From sequence record NC_054903.1: 64,000 nt of DNA. One strand, 5' to 3'. The notes below the pieces were generated by a model. The model saw nothing but the letters and a program-made list of their open reading frames with translations. It was not told the DNA's origin and did not search any database. Below, piece after piece: positions 5,281-18,908 of the stretch. Every line of letters starts with the position of its first letter. Within the stretch, counting starts at the first letter, position 1. The position numbers and the translations under genes are program-made. Source of the DNA: Enterobacteria phage GiZh.

Positions 5281-5862
5281 CTAACCGAGCTTTTTAGTTA
5301 ATTCATTCCAATGTTTTCTGCACAAAGAAACATAAATTTCATCACCAATACAGATTTGATTACCTTCTTTAACTGGTGTTCCATCTTCCATTAATCGAGC
5401 TGTCATAATCGCTTTTTTGCCGCAATGACAAACTGCCTTTAGTTCAATAAGTTTATCTGCAATCGCTAAAAGTTCTTTAGAACCTTCAAACAATTTTCCA
5501 GCGAAATCAGTCCTTAATCCATAAGCCATAACAGGAACATTATATGTATCAACAATTCGGCTCAATTGATGCACCTGTTCAGTTTTTAAAAACTGAGCTT
5601 CATCTACAAATACGCAATGAATATCTTTTTGTGCTTCAGCCCATTTATAGAACTCGAAAATATCCATATCATCTGTAATAATATTCGCTTCCTGTTTAAT
5701 TCCAATGCGAGAAACAACTTCACAGACAGAATCGCGAGTATCAATAGCAGGCTTAAGAACTAATACACTCATTCCACGTTCTTTATAATTATGTGCAGCA
5801 GTCAAAAGAGAAGCAGATTTTCCAGCATTCATTGCTGCATAAGTAAAAATTAAACTCGCCAT
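5281..5862 (-). CDS. tk: thymidine kinase
   Basis: 193 aa; P-loop AAMNAGKSASLL; length and sequence consistent with T4 Tk. Confidence 0.9.
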   Translation of the reverse strand: MASLIFTYAAMNAGKSASLLTAAHNYKERGMSVLVLKPAIDTRDSVCEVVSRIGIKQEANIITDDMDIFEFYKWAEAQKDIHCVFVDEAQFLKTEQVHQLSRIVDTYNVPVMAYGLRTDFAGKLFEGSKELLAIADKLIELKAVCHCGKKAIMTARLMEDGTPVKEGNQICIGDEIYVSLCRKHWNELTKKLG

Positions 5863-10631: not shown

Positions 10632-11105
10632 TTATTTGAACGATTTAACGTACTGAATAGAACCTTTACTATTCACAAAGGCAATTTTACCATTTTTATT
10701 ATACATGGTAGCAGTACGTTGATAACCATAAGTTTGTTTACCAGATTGATAACCAACTAATGCGAAATTATCTTCGCCCATTTTATTCTGTTTAGCGCGA
10801 ATGCGTTCATGACCATGTGCCATAAGAACCTTAGCATCACCAGTTGCAATGGATCGACGAGTTTTTTCATCTTCAACTGTATTAACAAAGTCGTCAAATG
10901 AATCAAATTTAGCATGAGATTTATTATACAATTTTCCATCTACTGCATAATTATATCCCTGTACATCCATCTCAACTTCTGTACCATCATCCAATACAGC
11001 AGTGATTTTTTGACCTTTTTTAAATTTCAAAAGATCAGTAAAAGATTCAGCAATAATTTGAGAATTAATAGCTGCTTCAGTGATAAATTCTTGATATGTT
11101 TTCAT
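10632..11105 (-). CDS. internal-protein-like (capsid-targeting leader)
   Basis: 157 aa; N-terminus MKTYQEFITE then AAIN resembles the T4 IP leader with a gp21-type cleavage site. Confidence 0.7.
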   Translation of the reverse strand: MKTYQEFITEAAINSQIIAESFTDLLKFKKGQKITAVLDDGTEVEMDVQGYNYAVDGKLYNKSHAKFDSFDDFVNTVEDEKTRRSIATGDAKVLMAHGHERIRAKQNKMGEDNFALVGYQSGKQTYGYQRTATMYNKNGKIAFVNSKGSIQYVKSFK

Positions 11106-11114
11106 ATGTTTCCT

Positions 11115-11531
11115 TTAAATGTAAATATTTTTACCGTAATACTTATACCAATGTGGTTTCATTAAAATTTTTTCATCAAGTCGTTGTTGACTCAATTTAA
11201 TAGCTGATTTGCATGGATTATAATCATTTTTCCATTCTACTGGAATATCGCTGATGTCAGGAACTTCAGTATCTTTTATACTGAACCCGCGTTTTAAGCA
11301 TTCCGTTATAATGTCTAATTGACTCTTTCGCAAAAATTCTAACTTATCGTAAAAGAACGTAACATGACCAGAACCTAAAATAAACTCGGAAGATATTTTA
11401 AAATCTTTAACGCGCTTACCGTTTGCCACATGCTTACGAACTATACCAAAAACACGCGGCAATTCACGGTATTCTGCGATTAAATGTTGATCAGCAAGTT
11501 CAGATACTAAAGTCAAATTAATACGAGTCAT
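11115..11531 (-). CDS. denV: endonuclease V (pyrimidine-dimer DNA glycosylase)
   Basis: 138 aa; [17 protein letters not shown]...[10 protein letters not shown] close to T4 DenV. Confidence 0.9.
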
Positions 11532-11544
11532 TTTATCCCTCCAA

Positions 11545-11590
11545 TTAACTGTGAATATACTATCACAATTCTAGGAGAAAGTAAACAACT
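11545..11590 (-). promoter_or_regulatory. early promoter upstream of denV
   Basis: gtaaac near 11581-11586 and tatactatc -10-like region. Confidence 0.45.
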
Positions 11591-12121
<531 letters not shown>

Positions 12122-12562
12122 TTAAAAGAGGCTGTTCATTATTCGGTAAAGTGAAGGACCCATCACATATTGCCACTGAGTACGAGGAATAAGAGCAAAA
12201 GCATCCATCTCTGGAATCATAACACCATCTTTATTTTCAAAATAAGACTCGCAATGGCAATTTCTAAACATCTCATGCTCTACTGGAATCGTATAATAAA
12301 ACAGCTGTAAGTCTTTATTACTAGAATATTTAAATACACCTAGGTCTTCTAGAAGGTCTGGATTATAATTGCTAAAACCGGTCTCTTCTAAGCATTCTCT
12401 TCGTGCTGCATCTAGTGCGCTCAAATCAGAATTTTCTACACGGCCTTTTGGAATATCCCAACGATGTGCCATCATTCCAGGCTTACGAGAACCAGTAACC
12501 CGTCCCATGAATAAATCTTTATCTTCTGTCATAAAGATAATACCAGCTGATAATGTTTTCAT
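12122..12562 (-). CDS. nudE: Nudix hydrolase
   Basis: Nudix box GRVENSDLSALDAARRECLEETG; start at MKTLSAGIIF with ATGA overlap (track ORF extends to 12577). Confidence 0.8.
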   Translation of the reverse strand: MKTLSAGIIFMTEDKDLFMGRVTGSRKPGMMAHRWDIPKGRVENSDLSALDAARRECLEETGFSNYNPDLLEDLGVFKYSSNKDLQLFYYTIPVEHEMFRNCHCESYFENKDGVMIPEMDAFALIPRTQWQYVMGPSLYRIMNSLF

Positions 12563-13047
12563 TTTAATTTCCTGCATTCGGTGATAAAATTATTTAAATT
12601 TTGAGTGTATTTCTTTTCATCAAAAATCTTTTGCTGCCTACGTAAACGCCATGGCATTTCAATGAACACGCACCATATTCCTGATAGTACTGCTGCTGTA
12701 AAAATATTAACAAGTATAATTAAAAGAATCCAATCTTCCGTTCTGCCTACTGGACTTTCTCCAAAGAAGCAAAATACAAATGATGTCACAGGAAAACTAA
12801 TAATATACCACAGAATAACCTTCTTATCTGTGAACCAATCAGCGTTCGTTAACTTAGCACGACCATTTTGAATACACACGAATTTATCATCTGTTACAGT
12901 AGATGGCTTAACTGCTTGATATCCCATTCTAAACTCCCTAATTAATCGTTTCTTTGTATCTTCAGAACAGCCGCTCCAGTCAACTCTATCGACTGAAATG
13001 CCATCGTCCCCATCATCTAAATCATACCAGCGAGTTTTTAAAATCAT
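12559..13047 (-). CDS. hypothetical membrane protein (tandem family)
   Basis: 162 aa with TM helices; C-terminus NFITECRKLK. Confidence 0.55.
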   Translation of the reverse strand: MILKTRWYDLDDGDDGISVDRVDWSGCSEDTKKRLIREFRMGYQAVKPSTVTDDKFVCIQNGRAKLTNADWFTDKKVILWYIISFPVTSFVFCFFGESPVGRTEDWILLIILVNIFTAAVLSGIWCVFIEMPWRLRRQQKIFDEKKYTQNLNNFITECRKLK

Positions 13048-13418
13048 TTGATTTTCCTACAATCATTCACGAATTCTTTCATTGATTCATTTTCAATATA
13101 AGACATGTAGTTATTATATTCTTTTAATTGTATTTTGTAATCCTTTTTTCTTTGCCAATTTATTTTAAAATTATCATAATGAAAATATAAAATAATACCA
13201 AAGAATGAAAATAATGAAATCGCTATAGTATAATGAAGTTCACTCCAAACTTCTATTATATCTACTATACCGCTGACATTACTGCGGATGTTTAAAATAA
13301 TACAGTCAATCATTAATCCAATAAGACTACCAGCAAGAGCTGCAGCCAACGCCACAGCAAAAATTAAAAATGACTCAGAAAAAGAATATTTGTCTTTATT
13401 TAGTTTTGGCTTTTGCAT
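13044..13418 (-). CDS. hypothetical membrane protein (tandem family)
   Basis: 124 aa with TM helices; C-terminus EFVNDCRKIK. Confidence 0.55.
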   Translation of the reverse strand: MQKPKLNKDKYSFSESFLIFAVALAAALAGSLIGLMIDCIILNIRSNVSGIVDIIEVWSELHYTIAISLFSFFGIILYFHYDNFKINWQRKKDYKIQLKEYNNYMSYIENESMKEFVNDCRKIK

Positions 13419-13792
13419 CGTGATTCCTTAACAAATTTCATAATTTCGTTAAATTCATGCATATCTAATTTAAGCTGGTGTTCCTTTTTAATCTTTTTAC
13501 ACTGAGCTTTCCATTCACGTACACGTTTACGATAATGCCTTCCTTGATACCAATATCCTACCCAATTTACAGGTACCAATAAAAATGGAACTACTAATGG
13601 AAGAATTAGTGTTGCTCCAAATATTGCACCAGATTCAATATCAGTCATAACGTCTATAACTATTCCAGCAATCAACAGAATCACAAATGATACGGCTACC
13701 ACAGGACCTATTAACACATCAGTAGAAATTATCTGACGCTTTAATTCATACTTTAAGGGTTTACTTGGAAGATACATTGATGGCTTTGACAT
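13400..13792 (-). CDS. hypothetical membrane protein (tandem family)
   Basis: 130 aa with TM helices; C-terminus KFVKESRCKSQN. Confidence 0.55.
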   Translation of the reverse strand: MSKPSMYLPSKPLKYELKRQIISTDVLIGPVVAVSFVILLIAGIVIDVMTDIESGAIFGATLILPLVVPFLLVPVNWVGYWYQGRHYRKRVREWKAQCKKIKKEHQLKLDMHEFNEIMKFVKESRCKSQN

Positions 13793-14366
13793 ATTCTCTG
13801 CATTCCTTCACAAATTTTTCTAATAATAAATCGCTTTCAAAATTGGGATTTTCTACGAATTTATCAAAAAGATTATCGACAATAGTTAAGATATTCTTTT
13901 TACTAAGAATACGTTTATTTTCATGCTTCGTTTCAGAATCAACTATAAGAGTAAAGAAATATTTCTTGCCCTGAAATTTTACAGTAGTATCAATATAGAA
14001 TAAATTTGACTTTTGTAAATTACGTTTAAACCATGCATCACTTAAACTATAAACGCCAAGATAATCATAATCGTCGTTTAAATAACAGACCGTCCATTCA
14101 GGAGAAACAAAATCAGTAAATTCAACGTCAAAATCGCATGTTAATAAATGAATTGATTCAATACTGTTAATAAGTATTCCAGGACGTATTAAAGACTTTT
14201 TACCTTTATAAAATCCAGAAAGACTTTCATCAGTTTCATATGAAGAACCCCAATAATAATTACGTCCTTCTGCCATACGTTTAAGAGCATTTAATAATTG
14301 GTCTGGAACATCAACCTGTCTTTGGAACTCTTCAAACATTGAATTGAAATCACTTTGCATTTTCAT
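13761..14366 (-). CDS. hypothetical protein
   Basis: 201 aa; C-terminal EKFVKECREYV shares the junction motif of the downstream family. Confidence 0.5.
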   Translation of the reverse strand: MKMQSDFNSMFEEFQRQVDVPDQLLNALKRMAEGRNYYWGSSYETDESLSGFYKGKKSLIRPGILINSIESIHLLTCDFDVEFTDFVSPEWTVCYLNDDYDYLGVYSLSDAWFKRNLQKSNLFYIDTTVKFQGKKYFFTLIVDSETKHENKRILSKKNILTIVDNLFDKFVENPNFESDLLLEKFVKECREYVKAINVSSK

Positions 14367-14407
14367 TCCTACTTACTCCAAGTAATAGGGGCCGAAGCCC
14401 CTTATCA

Positions 14408-15001
14408 TTATTTCAGAGAATTAATGTATTCCTGAACATCGGCAGAGGTAGTTTCAACCCCAGAAATATTGCCATTAAAGGTTTCAACTCGAGCAAGAGT
14501 ATCTTCAATATCAACCTTAGTCAGTGCTGCAATTTCAACTACATCATCAGCAGTACTAATTCCGAGGGCATTCGCGGCGCGAGTTTCACGGATATATTCC
14601 AATTTAACTGCAAGTTCTTGGCGAGCATCATCTAACTCAACTACTTTCTTGGCAATTTCAATTCGCATTTCAGCATAACCATCAGCTTTAGTAGTCAACT
14701 GCTCAGCTGTTCGACGATATAGTAAACCGAGTTTAGCATGCATTGTTACATCTTGACCTTCAGAAAGAAGCTTGCGAATTTCACGCTCTTTTGATTCGGC
14801 CTGCTTATTCTTTTCGACAATAAGTTCACGAATACGCTTTTCTTCATTAATAGATTTAACAGAAGCAGTTTTTAGATCTTTAATCTTATCAAGTAGTTTT
14901 GCTGCCGCAGCAGTATACTGTTCTTCAACAGATAGATTTTTAGCCATAGCAGAACCAAGTTTAGTGCGAATAAACTCAACAATTTTCTTCAGCATGTTCA
15001 T
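14408..15001 (-). CDS. coiled-coil hypothetical protein
   Basis: 197 aa, charged heptad-like composition. Confidence 0.5.
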
Positions 15002-15039
15002 AGCATTTCCTTTAGTTAATTAAGGGTTTTATAATCCGT

Positions 15040-15075
15040 GGGAGTATTATACTCTACTCCCAAGAGTTTGTAAAC
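15040..15075 (-). promoter_or_regulatory. early promoter with inverted repeat around -10
   Basis: gtaaac 15069-15074; inverted repeat gggagta/tactccc encloses TATAAT-like loop. Confidence 0.45.
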
Positions 15076-15405
15076 TTATTCTTCGTCCAATTCATCAATA
15101 AATTTATCGATACTACTATTAATAGACTCATCGATGATTAACAAAGCATCATCTATAATATTAATATTTTCTAAAGCATCAATATAAGCTTGATTGACTA
15201 TAGACCATGCCCTTTGAAAATATGGGGCTTCATCATCAGGACTGAACCAACGTACACCTTCAAAGATACGTTTAGCATAATCCAACACCCATTGTACAGG
15301 CATGTTTTGAGAGCGTTCATTAAACTCTTCAAAGTCCTTAGATTCAAAAAGCTCTTCAGGATAATAATTTCTATTACAAAAAGCTTTACTAAAGTTACGT
15401 TTCAT
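15076..15405 (-). CDS. hypothetical protein
   Basis: 109 aa ORF with promoter-like element upstream. Confidence 0.5.
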   Translation of the reverse strand: MKRNFSKAFCNRNYYPEELFESKDFEEFNERSQNMPVQWVLDYAKRIFEGVRWFSPDDEAPYFQRAWSIVNQAYIDALENINIIDDALLIIDESINSSIDKFIDELDEE

Positions 15406-15424
15406 AATGTTCTCCTCAAAGTTA

Positions 15425-15465
15425 TAGGCTCATAATATCTCAATCATGAGCCTGTGTAAACTTAT
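15425..15465 (-). promoter_or_regulatory. early promoter with inverted repeat around -10
   Basis: gtaaac 15457-15462; inverted repeat ggctcat/atgagcc encloses aatatctcaatc. Confidence 0.4.
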
Positions 15466-15788
15466 TTCATATTATTGAAATATTCTTCAGCAATTTCATC
15501 ATTATCATGATAAACTTTAGAAGACAGTTTAACATAACTTTCAGCAGTGAACATGTTAATCACAACCTTTACAGTATACCACTGACCATCTTCATTACCC
15601 ATTACTGCGTAAGTTTCAAACAACGGATGATCAGGACCGATAACTTTAATATCATTCACTGTACGACCGAAATCTTCTGAAACACATTTCATAAAGAAGT
15701 TGAACAGCTCACCGTAATTATCCATTTCATTCTCCAAGTTATTTTCTGTATCAGTAGTTGATAGTTGTATAGTACCATGGAAGGACAA
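15462..15788 (-). CDS. hypothetical protein
   Basis: 108 aa ORF downstream of a promoter/stem-loop repeat. Confidence 0.5.
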   Translation of the reverse strand: MSFHGTIQLSTTDTENNLENEMDNYGELFNFFMKCVSEDFGRTVNDIKVIGPDHPLFETYAVMGNEDGQWYTVKVVINMFTAESYVKLSSKVYHDNDEIAEEYFNNMK

Positions 15789-15815
15789 GGATGTAAACCG
15801 TTTTGTGAAAAAATT
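15758..15815 (-). promoter_or_regulatory. early-promoter/stem-loop cassette (PeSL-like)
   Basis: tagttgatagttgtatagtaccat...gtaaaccgttttgtgaaaaa; near-identical to copy at 486-556. Confidence 0.5.
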
Positions 15816-15931
15816 TTTAAAAAGTTTTGGGGAATTCTAGGGCAGGGAGGGGAAATCAAAGGATAGGATAATATATTATAAAGGGTAGAAACTAAATGAT
15901 GTCTAGAGAGGCCTGGAAAGGCCTAGATACC

Positions 15932-15958
15932 AAAAAGCCCCAACCTTTCGGCTAGGGC
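15932..15958 (-). terminator. intrinsic terminator after IP-like gene
   Basis: Minus sense GCCCUAGCC-GAAA-GGUUGGGGC-UUUUU; near-copy of terminator at 16486. Confidence 0.65.
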
Positions 15959-15966
15959 TAAGAATG

Positions 15967-16440
15967 TTATTTGATTTGTTTAGCAGACCAAATGCGGTCT
16001 TTAATAATTTTTTGGATGTCTTCAACATATTCAAGAGAGTGAACATGTGGGTTATCTTTGAAACTATAAGCACGAGCTAGCTTTTGGCCTTCAGTTTTAA
16101 TTACTAAAAGCTCTTTAAGGATAGCTTCATATTTGGAGATAATTCCTTTAACAATATTTTTCTCTTGTGCGACTTTAGGATCTGCTTTAGGAGCAGGTTT
16201 ACCTGAAGCCTTTGCAAAAGCAGCTCCAGTAGCAACTAAACTTTTCCAGGCCATACTAACTGCATTTCCCGTAAATCCTTCCGCTTTCATATCGCGAGCA
16301 AATTGGAATCGTGACTCATCGGAAGCATCTTTATAGGAATATTTACCCGCGGCAATGGCAGCTTTTGCAACAGCTTGAATTTCAGTGCTAGATGCTTCAT
16401 TTAACACCGCTTCATTTAAAAATTGAGCATATGATTTCAT
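15967..16440 (-). CDS. internal-protein-like (capsid-targeting leader)
   Basis: 157 aa; MKSYAQFLNE then AVLNE; minus-strand TATAAATA upstream; flanked by two related terminators. Confidence 0.65.
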   Translation of the reverse strand: MKSYAQFLNEAVLNEASSTEIQAVAKAAIAAGKYSYKDASDESRFQFARDMKAEGFTGNAVSMAWKSLVATGAAFAKASGKPAPKADPKVAQEKNIVKGIISKYEAILKELLVIKTEGQKLARAYSFKDNPHVHSLEYVEDIQKIIKDRIWSAKQIK

Positions 16441-16476
16441 CTTATTTCCTGTTTTAATTTGTAGATTTAATATACT

Positions 16477-16484
16477 TATTTATA
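16477..16484 (-). promoter_or_regulatory. late promoter (TATAAATA) for IP-like gene
   Basis: Minus-strand TATAAATA 37 nt upstream of ATG at 16440. Confidence 0.55.
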
Positions 16485-16485
16485 C

Positions 16486-16513
16486 TAAAAAGCCCCAACC
16501 TTTCGGTCGGGGC
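16486..16513 (-). terminator. intrinsic terminator ending the tRNA/stable RNA cluster
   Basis: Minus sense GCCCCGACC-GAAA-GGUUGGGGC-UUUUU. Confidence 0.7.
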
Positions 16514-18680: not shown

Positions 18681-18908
18681 TTTACGAAAAATTGATTTAT
18701 TTTCTGCTGCCCATTTTTCAATAACTGCAGCAGGACCAGTAACAACAATTTTATCACCGTAATCTTCTGCGGCGAGTTGACCGAAATTATCTAATGCATC
18801 ACGAAGAACTCCATGAGGCATTTCACCCATTTTATCTTTCTTGCCGGTGTAAATAAACTCAACTTTTACATCAGAAGATTCAGCGATAAACTCTTTGAAA
18901 GTTTTCAT
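18675..18908 (-). CDS. internal-protein-like (capsid-targeting leader)
   Basis: Start placed at MKTFKEFIAE then SSDV (track ORF extends to 18974); about 77 aa. Confidence 0.6.
   Translation of the reverse strand: MKTFKEFIAESSDVKVEFIYTGKKDKMGEMPHGVLRDALDNFGQLAAEDYGDKIVVTGPAAVIEKWAAENKSIFRKK

Follow-up and report, generated by a model that had tools for sequence, protein, structure and literature searches.

In Escherichia coli, PspB and PspC bind PspA, and the subunits of ESCRT-III carry short C-terminal amphipathic helices, the MIM helices, that bind the MIT domains of Vps4. In Bacillus subtilis, the PspA homologue LiaH is brought to the membrane by a small anchor protein, LiaI (PMC9239133). 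The capsid targeting sequence (CTS) of T4 is a short terminal peptide that forms the sole conserved part of diverse, fast-evolving T-even proteins encoded in plastic loci (PMC3012670). T4-type phages also have promoter early stem-loop (PeSL) elements, which are short, are repeated at gene boundaries in hyperplastic regions, and have been proposed to mediate modular shuffling (PMC2839356, PMC4122927). Here, we describe a C-terminal peptide, with the core F-I-x-x-C-R in T4-like phages, that is shared by four adjacent genes, e.5, e.4, e.3 and e.2, in a 64,000-nucleotide stretch of Enterobacteria phage GiZh (NC_054903.1; hereafter the window). The window is a segment of a Tequatrovirus genome; of 641 phage records that match bases 12000–15100, Escherichia phage Ge15 is the closest, at 96.8%. 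Gene names are in T4 style and were taken from the annotation of phages AR1, NR1 and T4. We conclude that what is repeated is a conserved peptide at the C-terminus and not a DNA junction, and that it is very probably a functional tag that acts at the peptide level.

The four genes follow e.6 on the same strand. Their positions in the window, with those of the shared tail, are:

14408–15001, minus strand: e.6, 197 aa, PspA/Vipp1-like (IM30, ESCRT-III superfamily)
13761–14366, minus strand: e.5, 201 aa, soluble, without a transmembrane (TM) segment
13797–13814, minus strand: e.5 tail core F-V-K-E-C-R (TTT GTG AAG GAA TGC AGA), 11 residues before the stop
13400–13792, minus strand: e.4, 130 aa, two TM segments (about 13646–13702 and 13568–13624)
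13418–13435, minus strand: e.4 tail core, variant F-V-K-E-S-R followed by C-K
13496–13513, minus strand: e.4 internal tail-like element W-K-A-Q-C-K, in REWKAQCKKIK, residues 94–99
13044–13418, minus strand: e.3, 124 aa, two TM segments (about 13314–13370 and 13182–13238)
13056–13073, minus strand: e.3 tail core F-V-N-D-C-R followed by K-I-K-stop
12559–13047, minus strand: e.2, intact, 162 aa, with a soluble N-domain of ~75 aa, two TM segments and the tail
about 12763–12819 and 12649–12732, minus strand: TM helices of e.2
12571–12588, minus strand: e.2 tail core F-I-T-E-C-R followed by K-L-K-stop

The first-pass annotation of this region had proposed four consecutive open reading frames (ORFs) of 201, 130, 124 and 162 aa, a pair of TM segments in each of the last three, and a C-terminal motif common to all four. 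The ORFs were borne out, on the minus strand, as were the two TM segments in each of the 162-, 124- and 130-aa proteins, which appear as hydrophobic stretches. The motif is present on all four proteins; it is not uniform, since the e.5 copy lies 11 residues from the end and the e.4 copy has S in place of the Cys, with a Cys following two residues further on. The C-terminal ends are LEKFVKECREYVKAINVSSK for e.5, IMKFVKESRCKSQN for e.4, MKEFVNDCRKIK for e.3 and LNNFITECRKLK for e.2, with the common form Φ-x-x-F-[VI]-x-[ED]-[CS]-R. The consecutive, co-oriented e.4, e.3 and e.2 proteins have basic N-termini, basic tails and acidic connecting loops, indicating an N-in/C-in topology in which the tails are cytoplasmic.

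We searched the six-frame translation of the window (segments of 40 aa or more, 46,064 residues in total) for F[VI]x[ED][CS]R and found exactly four matches, which are the four C-termini, where by our own estimate ~0.1 would be expected by chance. A relaxed pattern added only the C-terminus of thymidine kinase, YVSLCRKHW (5317–5334, minus strand), which we rejected as a member of the family because it is conserved tk sequence, also present in the tk of Bp7, and an unrelated chance look-alike. In a further 100 kb of T4, the relaxed motif was near the end of no real gene. Across the ~164 kb of T4-type sequence scanned, which takes in imm, sp and rIII, the tag ends no gene outside the e.6-to-e cluster except for the chance match in tk. 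Looser look-alikes occur at the end of e.7 (15076–15405), which reads IDKFIDELDEE, and at the end of e.6, in which the Tyr is invariant in 10 genera; because both lack the C-R core, they were not counted as members. The internal element of e.4 lies ~28 residues ahead of the terminal, Cys-less motif and is kept in the e.4 proteins of Mosigvirus and Jiaodavirus. When the e.3 tail was aligned with e.4, this element was the best hhalign match, at a level that is not significant (E 0.015). It may represent an earlier duplicate of the tail, at a former C-terminus that was later extended.

We collected the syntenic clusters of other T4-like genera, using e.2, e.4 and e.6 as anchors, and found the tail in 13 genera: Tequatrovirus, Mosigvirus, Dhakavirus, Jiaodavirus, Karamvirus, Winklervirus, Roskildevirus, Kagamiyamavirus, Biquartavirus, Tulanevirus, Pseudotevenvirus, Bragavirus and Muldoonvirus. 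In most of these genera the F-I-x-x-C-R core is on three to six adjacent genes; it is placed 0–25 residues ahead of the stop, and the bodies of the carriers are 25–55% identical to the window proteins where tblastn detects any identity. A consensus was derived from 42 curated instances, collected with a pattern that required the aromatic, I/V/L and R/K positions and did not require the Cys at +4 or the flanking preferences. With the aromatic residue as position 0 (F 34, Y 6, W 2), the consensus has L/I/V at −3, E/N at −2 (positions −2 and −1 are often acidic or Asn), I (32) or V (9) at +1, C at +4 (32 of 42), R (39) or K (3) at +5, and K/E/G at +6. Some copies have I, V, L, M or S in place of the Cys. 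Particular lineages have their own variants: phiP4-3 has Y at position 0 in six of six copies, and two unrelated proteins of PS2 both end in C-K-[ED]-K-Y.

The motif is strongly associated with protein ends. Among 442 ORFs from 13 loci, 36 of the 39 matches to the relaxed motif were within 20 aa of the C-terminus, as compared to ~20% expected; two of the 36 are the unrelated tk C-terminus. Within Tequatrovirus, the last 12 residues of e.2, e.3 and e.4 are 92–100% conserved and are the most conserved part of these proteins, while the TM segments vary. Scans of IMG/VR for FIKECRK-stop and FIxEC[RS]K-stop found the motif at the ends of substantial genes only on T4-like contigs, with the remaining hits being out-of-frame chance matches. 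The codon data described below indicate that the tag is kept by selection at the amino-acid level in the 13 genera sampled.

To compare the carriers, we aligned cross-genus family alignments using hhalign, with and without the tails, and searched with tail-less sequences using phmmer. The e.3 and e.4 families aligned over their full length (96%, E 3e-9, 114 columns), the match was still present without the tails (91%, E 1e-6), and both proteins share the N-terminus M-x-K-P; we infer that e.3 and e.4 are true paralogues that arose by tandem duplication. By contrast, e.2 aligned with e.3, e.4 and e.5 over the last 9–15 columns only (for e.2–e.3: 79%, E 1.5e-5, 14 columns). Both e.2 and e.5 match the rest of the four proteins over just 10–15 terminal residues, and neither gave an hhalign alignment to that rest once the tails were removed. 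Searches with phmmer using tail-less sequences recovered separate families only, with e.2, e.3, e.4 and e.5 unlinked. Comparisons confined to one genus were less informative: Smith-Waterman alignment gave weak scores (e.3–e.4, z 5.0; e.2–e.3, z 3.8, from the tail only; others about 0), and Tequatrovirus-only alignments (Neff 1.3) reached a probability of 3% in hhalign, which is too weak to decide paralogy. Gene duplication, which had been suggested for the whole array, is thus borne out for e.3 and e.4, where similarity outlasts removal of the tail; it is not borne out for e.2 and e.5, where similarity is limited to the end encoded at the junction.

The same pattern was observed for carriers from other genera. 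The gene following e.6 forms, in part, a fast-evolving lineage: the family from Tequatrovirus and Mosigvirus (e5A) aligned with that from Dhakavirus, Jiaodavirus, Karamvirus and Winklervirus (e5B) at 86%, and e5B aligned with the Cronus protein at 42% and the Asfd_1 protein at 51%. The e.5-position proteins of Pseudotevenvirus and Bragavirus, and several other soluble carriers, matched through the tail only. A family of two-TM proteins that we call 'last' aligned weakly with e.4 (53%). Carriers include two-TM proteins of 87–130 aa, e.2 with its 75-aa N-domain, and soluble proteins of 100–320 aa. Based on these comparisons, the array consists of one tandem duplication (e.3/e.4) plus a tag on bodies that are unrelated or have diverged beyond recognition. 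Since e.2, e.5 and further carriers share nothing else detectable with e.3/e.4, the tail behaves as a portable tag. Members of the array do recombine with one another, as seen in Escherichia phage vB_EcoM-UFV05, in which P0144 (106 aa) is a natural in-frame e.4::e.2 fusion with e.3 deleted; it joins the first ~30–40 residues of e.4 to the second half of e.2, has both PF26873 and PF26896, and keeps the e.2 tail, with the joint inside TM1 and not at the tail.

An alternative that survives better than the others, and that we still regard as improbable, is that all carriers descend from a single ancestor by repeated tandem duplication, with the tail as the slowest-evolving remnant and with no common external partner. 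The remnant would then have some other role, such as self-association or a helix at the membrane surface. The demonstrable paralogy of e.3 and e.4, the weak alignment of e.4 with the 'last' family, the 86% match of the Tequatrovirus/Mosigvirus e.5 family to e.5-position proteins of other genera, and the adjacent, co-oriented arrangement of all carriers are consistent with common descent. Against this, carrier architectures are clearly different (two-TM, e.2 with its N-domain, soluble), no profile similarity persists after tail removal, mean tail hydrophobicity is negative, unlike that of membrane-targeting helices, and the near-invariant C-R is left unexplained.

We also asked whether conservation resides in the DNA. 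All synonymous codons are used in the tails (TTT/TTC, ATT/ATC/ATA, TGC/TGT, AGA/AGG/CGA/CGT/CGC), codon usage in the tails is roughly like that in the rest of the same genes, and third positions vary like background. The first-pass annotation had described a repeated DNA junction, with the consensus GAATGYAGRAAA, as the source of the motif. This consensus is not upheld: it is exact only in e.2, has one mismatch in e.3 and e.5, and fails in e.4 even at two mismatches, and with up to two mismatches allowed it has 36 matches in the window as compared to 37 expected, i.e. chance level. The four junctions share 17–25 of 39 nt, with exact runs of no more than 8 nt. Folding of the junction RNA gave no structure (z −1.1 to +1.3), and Rfam gave no family in 11400–16500. 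The variation of synonymous codons, the poor sharing of junction DNA and the lack of an RNA structure or Rfam match indicate that selection is on the peptide.

A second proposed property of the junctions, the supply of a ribosome-binding site and an overlapping start for the next gene, holds for the window. Consecutive genes overlap by 32 nt (e.5/e.4), 19 nt (e.4/e.3), 4 nt (e.3/e.2) and 4 nt (e.2/nudE), such that the ATGA overlap expected at every junction exists for e.3/e.2 (13044–13047) and e.2/nudE (12559–12562) and not for e.5/e.4 or e.4/e.3. At all four junctions, a purine tract formed by motif codons is 5–10 nt before the next ATG: AAGGAA, from the K-E codons, is 10 nt ahead of the e.4 ATG (13792) in the e.5 tail and 5 nt ahead of the e.3 ATG (13418) in the e.4 tail, and AGGAAA, from the R-K codons, is 5 nt ahead of the e.2 ATG in the e.3 tail and 5 nt ahead of the nudE ATG in the e.2 tail. 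Overlapping starts with a Shine-Dalgarno sequence inside the upstream ORF, as in translationally coupled cistrons, are thus present at all four. Across the 42 instances, the motif and the following ATG are separated by anything from −7 to 71 nt; given this range and the variation of synonymous codons, a Shine-Dalgarno role cannot explain conservation of the motif. We conclude that formation of a Shine-Dalgarno sequence by the K-E or R-K codons of the tag is a secondary use.

The converse, that the element is kept primarily for translational coupling, as Shine-Dalgarno sequence and overlapping start of the next gene, with the peptide as a by-product, seems to us distinctly improbable. Formation of the next Shine-Dalgarno sequence by motif codons at 4/4 window junctions fits this explanation, as does the minimal sequence encoding FIKECRK-stop (TTT ATT AAG GAA TGY MGN AAA TGA), which sets AAGGAA 8 nt before an ATGA start, and so does the skew of Arg codons at +5 to AGA/AGG/CGA (30 of 39, as compared to 47% background). 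Yet the most conserved positions, F, I/V and C, are unnecessary for a Shine-Dalgarno sequence, third codon positions vary at background level, the DNA consensus is not enriched, no RNA structure was found, and in ~40% of the 42 instances the R codon is more than 10 nt from the next ATG, with some instances preceding an intergenic gap.

A signal for processing or turnover, whether a C-terminal degron read by a protease of the host or a sequence related to the T4 CTS and its gp21 site (MKTYQEFI[AT]E, cut after I-x-E), we consider very unlikely. The CTS shows that T-even proteins with no other relationship can share a short terminal tag (PMC3012670), and MKTYQEFITEA, at 11076–11096 in an internal-protein-like gene of the window, is similar to LNNFITECRK over the first half of the latter; a pattern that matches CTS and tail alike has only four sites in 164 kb, and the tails end in basic residues. 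However, only 16 of 42 tails have the E at +3 that the gp21 rule, (L/I)-x-E, demands, the CTS lacks the invariant C-R and is located at the N-terminus, and two-TM proteins of the inner membrane are unlikely capsid cargo.

A further suggestion of the first-pass annotation, a recombination module boundary with short conserved DNA at gene ends for PeSL-like cassette swapping, can be set aside as the least probable of all: the region is hyperplastic (in Mosigvirus and Dhakavirus, additional genes amounting to about 3–4 kb separate e.3 or e.4 from e.2), T4-type phages are documented to shuffle genes by way of PeSL elements (PMC2839356, PMC4122927), and UFV05 has its fusion, but that fusion joins within TM1, the limited identity of the junctions noted above accompanies amino-acid-level conservation with synonymous drift, and the junctions are coding and unstructured, with neither the intergenic promoter plus stem-loop nor the nucleotide conservation of a PeSL cassette.

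None of these alternatives explains the combination of an invariant F-I-x-x-C-R, free synonymous variation and a variable distance to the next start. Taken as a whole, the best explanation, to which we give a probability of roughly 0.6, is that the tail is a cytoplasmic docking or address tag with a common partner, possibly e.6. That the tagged carriers dock on one common partner is slightly favoured over the reverse; that this partner is e.6 is a tentative proposal, and the tails could equally bind a target in the host or one another. In the proposed mechanism, the tail would form a short helix of weak amphipathicity, and its L/F/I/C face would dock the carriers on the inner side of the cytoplasmic membrane, most likely on a polymer of e.6. 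The residues L/I at −3, F at 0, I at +1 and C at +4 are spaced as expected for a single face of a helix. The Cys would have a role in packing rather than in catalysis or metal binding, since I, V, L, M or S substitute for it in some copies, and the lineage-wide variants of phiP4-3 and PS2 suggest co-evolution with one partner. The two-TM proteins e.2, e.3 and e.4 would be membrane anchors or adaptors, as LiaI is for LiaH or PspB/C for PspA, and e.5 would be a soluble client or regulator; the whole would be a phage-encoded membrane-maintenance module that is expressed early in infection. Mean tail hydrophobicity is negative, and we rejected a membrane-targeting helix, for which the tails are too polar.

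The case for e.6 combines its predicted fold with gene order. A single-sequence AlphaFold2 (AF2) model of e.6 is a long helical hairpin (predicted local distance difference test, pLDDT, 74.6; above 84 at residues 30–130). Searched with Foldseek against the PDB, the model had Vipp1/PspA structures as all of its top 11 matches (best E 2.9e-4). At the sequence level, a cross-genus e.6 profile aligned in register with Vipp1/PspA chains of the PDB, albeit at E 4.7–8.2, and one e.6 orthologue matched Pfam PspA_IM30 (E 4e-4). The link between e.6 and PspA is already published, but only as a remark, in a genome announcement that reported an HHpred match of 99.9% between an e.6 homologue and E. coli PspA (4WHE; PMC7862958). 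The cluster thus includes a protein of predicted PspA/IM30 fold, as expected of a Psp/Lia-type module. The gene directly after e.6 carries the tail in 13/13 genera sampled; this includes Pseudotevenvirus, Biquartavirus and Tulanevirus, in which e.6 is among the nrd genes and not between the tRNA genes and e. In the window, in about 100 kb of T4 and in the flanks of each locus, the tag was seen only in the e.6-led cluster. With e.6 as a PspA-like neighbour, a role in membrane integrity is plausible. A more specific reading, in which a polymer of e.6 with interchangeable adaptors (e.2–e.4 as anchors, e.5-like proteins as clients) is a viral membrane-maintenance machine of the Psp/ESCRT-III type, is speculative, and so, to the same degree, is its corollary that the shared F-I-x-x-C-R helix is the viral counterpart of the MIM-type tags of ESCRT-III. 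If true, adaptor bodies turning over behind a constant tag could tune membrane protection, and hence the timing of lysis, to different hosts.

Several observations weigh against a docking tag read by e.6. Amphipathicity of the tail is only moderate (shuffle p 0.04–0.17), and the single-sequence AF2 model of e.5 is unusable (pLDDT 40). The concerted variants of phiP4-3 and PS2 could stem from gene conversion or recent duplication instead of co-evolution with a partner. The reference e.2 of T4 is a frameshifted truncation of 102 aa, and in 97-aa alleles of e.3 (e.g. in Escherichia phage LH2) the C-terminal part is replaced, so that they end in RKKGLQNTIKRI, and the tail is lost; the existence of tail-less e.2 and e.3 alleles indicates that the tag is dispensable in at least some settings. 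Escherichia phage vB_EcoM_3HA11, a Kuttervirus (Ackermannviridae), has an e.6 homologue with no tail-bearing neighbour, indicating that e.6 does not need the tag. Finally, e.2, e.3 and e.4 gave no Pfam or NCBIfam match to PspB, PspC, LiaI or LiaF. With regard to the loci themselves, T4 (NC_000866, about 67480–67700) still encodes the second TM segment and a tail remnant, NNFITECRKL, in 'intergenic' DNA before nudE, and the Kuttervirus e.6 homologue (locus L053, 6010–6618) is about 28% identical to that of Bragavirus and adjoins genes for DNA ligase and primase/helicase.

Other features around the array are:

15432–15460, minus strand: strong early-promoter-like site upstream of e.7
15046–15074, minus strand: strong early-promoter-like site upstream of e.6
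14387–14402, minus strand: GC-rich stem-loop AGGGGCTTCGGCCCCT, inside the 41-nt gap between e.6 and e.5
12122–12562, minus strand: nudE (e.1), Nudix hydrolase (Pfam NUDIX, 1.1e-13), final gene of the overlapping block
11591–12085, minus strand: e (lysozyme), 164 aa
10632–11105, 15967–16440 and about 18879–18896, minus strand: proteins with CTS-like starts, two of which flank the e-gene cluster

The sites upstream of e.6 and e.7 are TTTACA-17-TATAAT and TTTACA-17-TATTAT, respectively. Between e.6 and nudE we found no comparable promoter-like site, only weaker matches in coding sequence. The stem-loop divides e.6 from the overlapping block e.5-e.4-e.3-e.2-nudE. Based on the annotation of NR1 and the anatomy of the junction, the true start of nudE is the ATG at 12562, and not the ATG at 12577 further upstream. 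The CTS-like starts, MKTYQEFITEA, MKSYAQFLNEA and MKTFKEFIAES, resemble the CTS of T4 internal proteins; in the first two, the core is like the first half of the tail without the C-R. The window differs from T4 in lacking ipII and ipIII between denV (11115–11531) and e.

The same hyperplastic region contains a second family of adjacent small soluble proteins, with the C-terminus W-x-[ST]-S-S-x-x-C or W-x-x-S-S-C (e.g. GAWISSSAMC, GGWVSSSSEC, KIWYPSSC). It occurs in Dhakavirus, Mosigvirus, Karamvirus, Winklervirus and Biquartavirus, and is absent from the window and the stretches of T4 scanned. In the collected loci, members are at:

L004, 2183–3221: W...S-S...C family
L005, 4731–5525: W...S-S...C family
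L008, 9303–9841: W...S-S...C family
L010, 9832–10391: W...S-S...C family
L012, 5468–5689: W...S-S...C family

Database searches returned little on the carriers. For e.2–e.5 there was nothing in Pfam-A, NCBIfam or PADLOC, and PHROGs gave only uncharacterised phage families ('unknown' or 'membrane protein'); precomputed Pfam accessions exist for homologues of e.4 (PF26873) and for e.2 (PF26896). A sequence search of the PDB with e.5 and e.6 gave nothing significant, and e.5 had five matches among 1.84e9 representative proteins, all of Tequatrovirus or Mosigvirus type or fragments. Searching the literature by gene name for e.2–e.6 returned nothing on function, and the tag looks undescribed. Database entries name homologues of e.3/e.4 'sulfurtransferase', one homologue of e.3 'DNA primase', e.6 'host specificity protein' and, apparently, e.5 'phosphoserine phosphatase' in some records; domain searches support none of these names. 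We rejected a rhodanese-like reading of 'CRK', which the 'sulfurtransferase' label at NCBI would suggest, because we found no such domain and no NCBIfam match.

T4 is among the best-studied viruses, yet e.2 to e.6 have no assigned function. The tag ties five genes of T4, and up to six in its relatives, into one probable unit around a PspA/ESCRT-III-like protein, and it exemplifies the survival of an unchanging peptide tag through replacement of the proteins that carry it. It also offers a precise annotation rule for ORFs mislabelled in GenBank (sulfurtransferase, host specificity protein, DNA primase). If the partner is e.6, the cluster would be, to our knowledge, the first virus-encoded Psp-like system with defined adaptors, and it would bear on the means by which phages maintain an energised host membrane up to lysis.

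Of the described systems, PeSL elements resemble the tail codons in being short elements repeated at gene boundaries in a hyperplastic region; they differ in being intergenic and conserved as nucleotides, with a promoter and a terminator-like hairpin, where the tail is coding, conserved as peptide and unstructured. The early or accessory T4 proteins Imm, Sp, RI and RIII are, like e.2–e.5, small, and are located in the inner membrane or periplasm, and they represent the roles, superinfection exclusion or lysis control, that the first-pass annotation had suggested for the membrane proteins of the array; we found no homology between the two sets in Pfam, PHROGs, NCBIfam or PADLOC. The T4 CTS and the tail are alike in that a short terminal peptide is the only element common to otherwise unrelated proteins, and there is local resemblance between QEFI[AT]E and xxF[IV]xE. 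By contrast, the CTS is at the N-terminus, where gp21 cleaves it, and targets proteins to the prohead, whereas the tail is C-terminal, is on membrane proteins, and is defined by the C-R that the CTS lacks.

The Psp and Lia systems are closer in gene content, in that a PspA/IM30-fold protein, e.6, is encoded beside several small, co-oriented inner-membrane proteins with cytoplasmic tails. The differences are that e.2, e.3 and e.4 have no sequence relationship to PspB, PspC or LiaI, that the T4-like cluster has several anchors together with soluble carriers under one C-terminal motif, and that the cluster is viral, with early promoters and with recruitment proposed here from gene adjacency. We know of no shared C-terminal motif of this sort in Psp/Lia systems. 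In the ESCRT-III system, the MIM helices are on the ESCRT-III subunits themselves and their consensus differs from that of the tail, and we know of no MIT or Vps4-like protein in T4. Nevertheless, the two arrangements are alike in having short C-terminal helices on different members of a membrane-remodelling system with, in the proposed mechanism, one common reader, and e.6 belongs, on its predicted fold, to the ESCRT-III/PspA superfamily.

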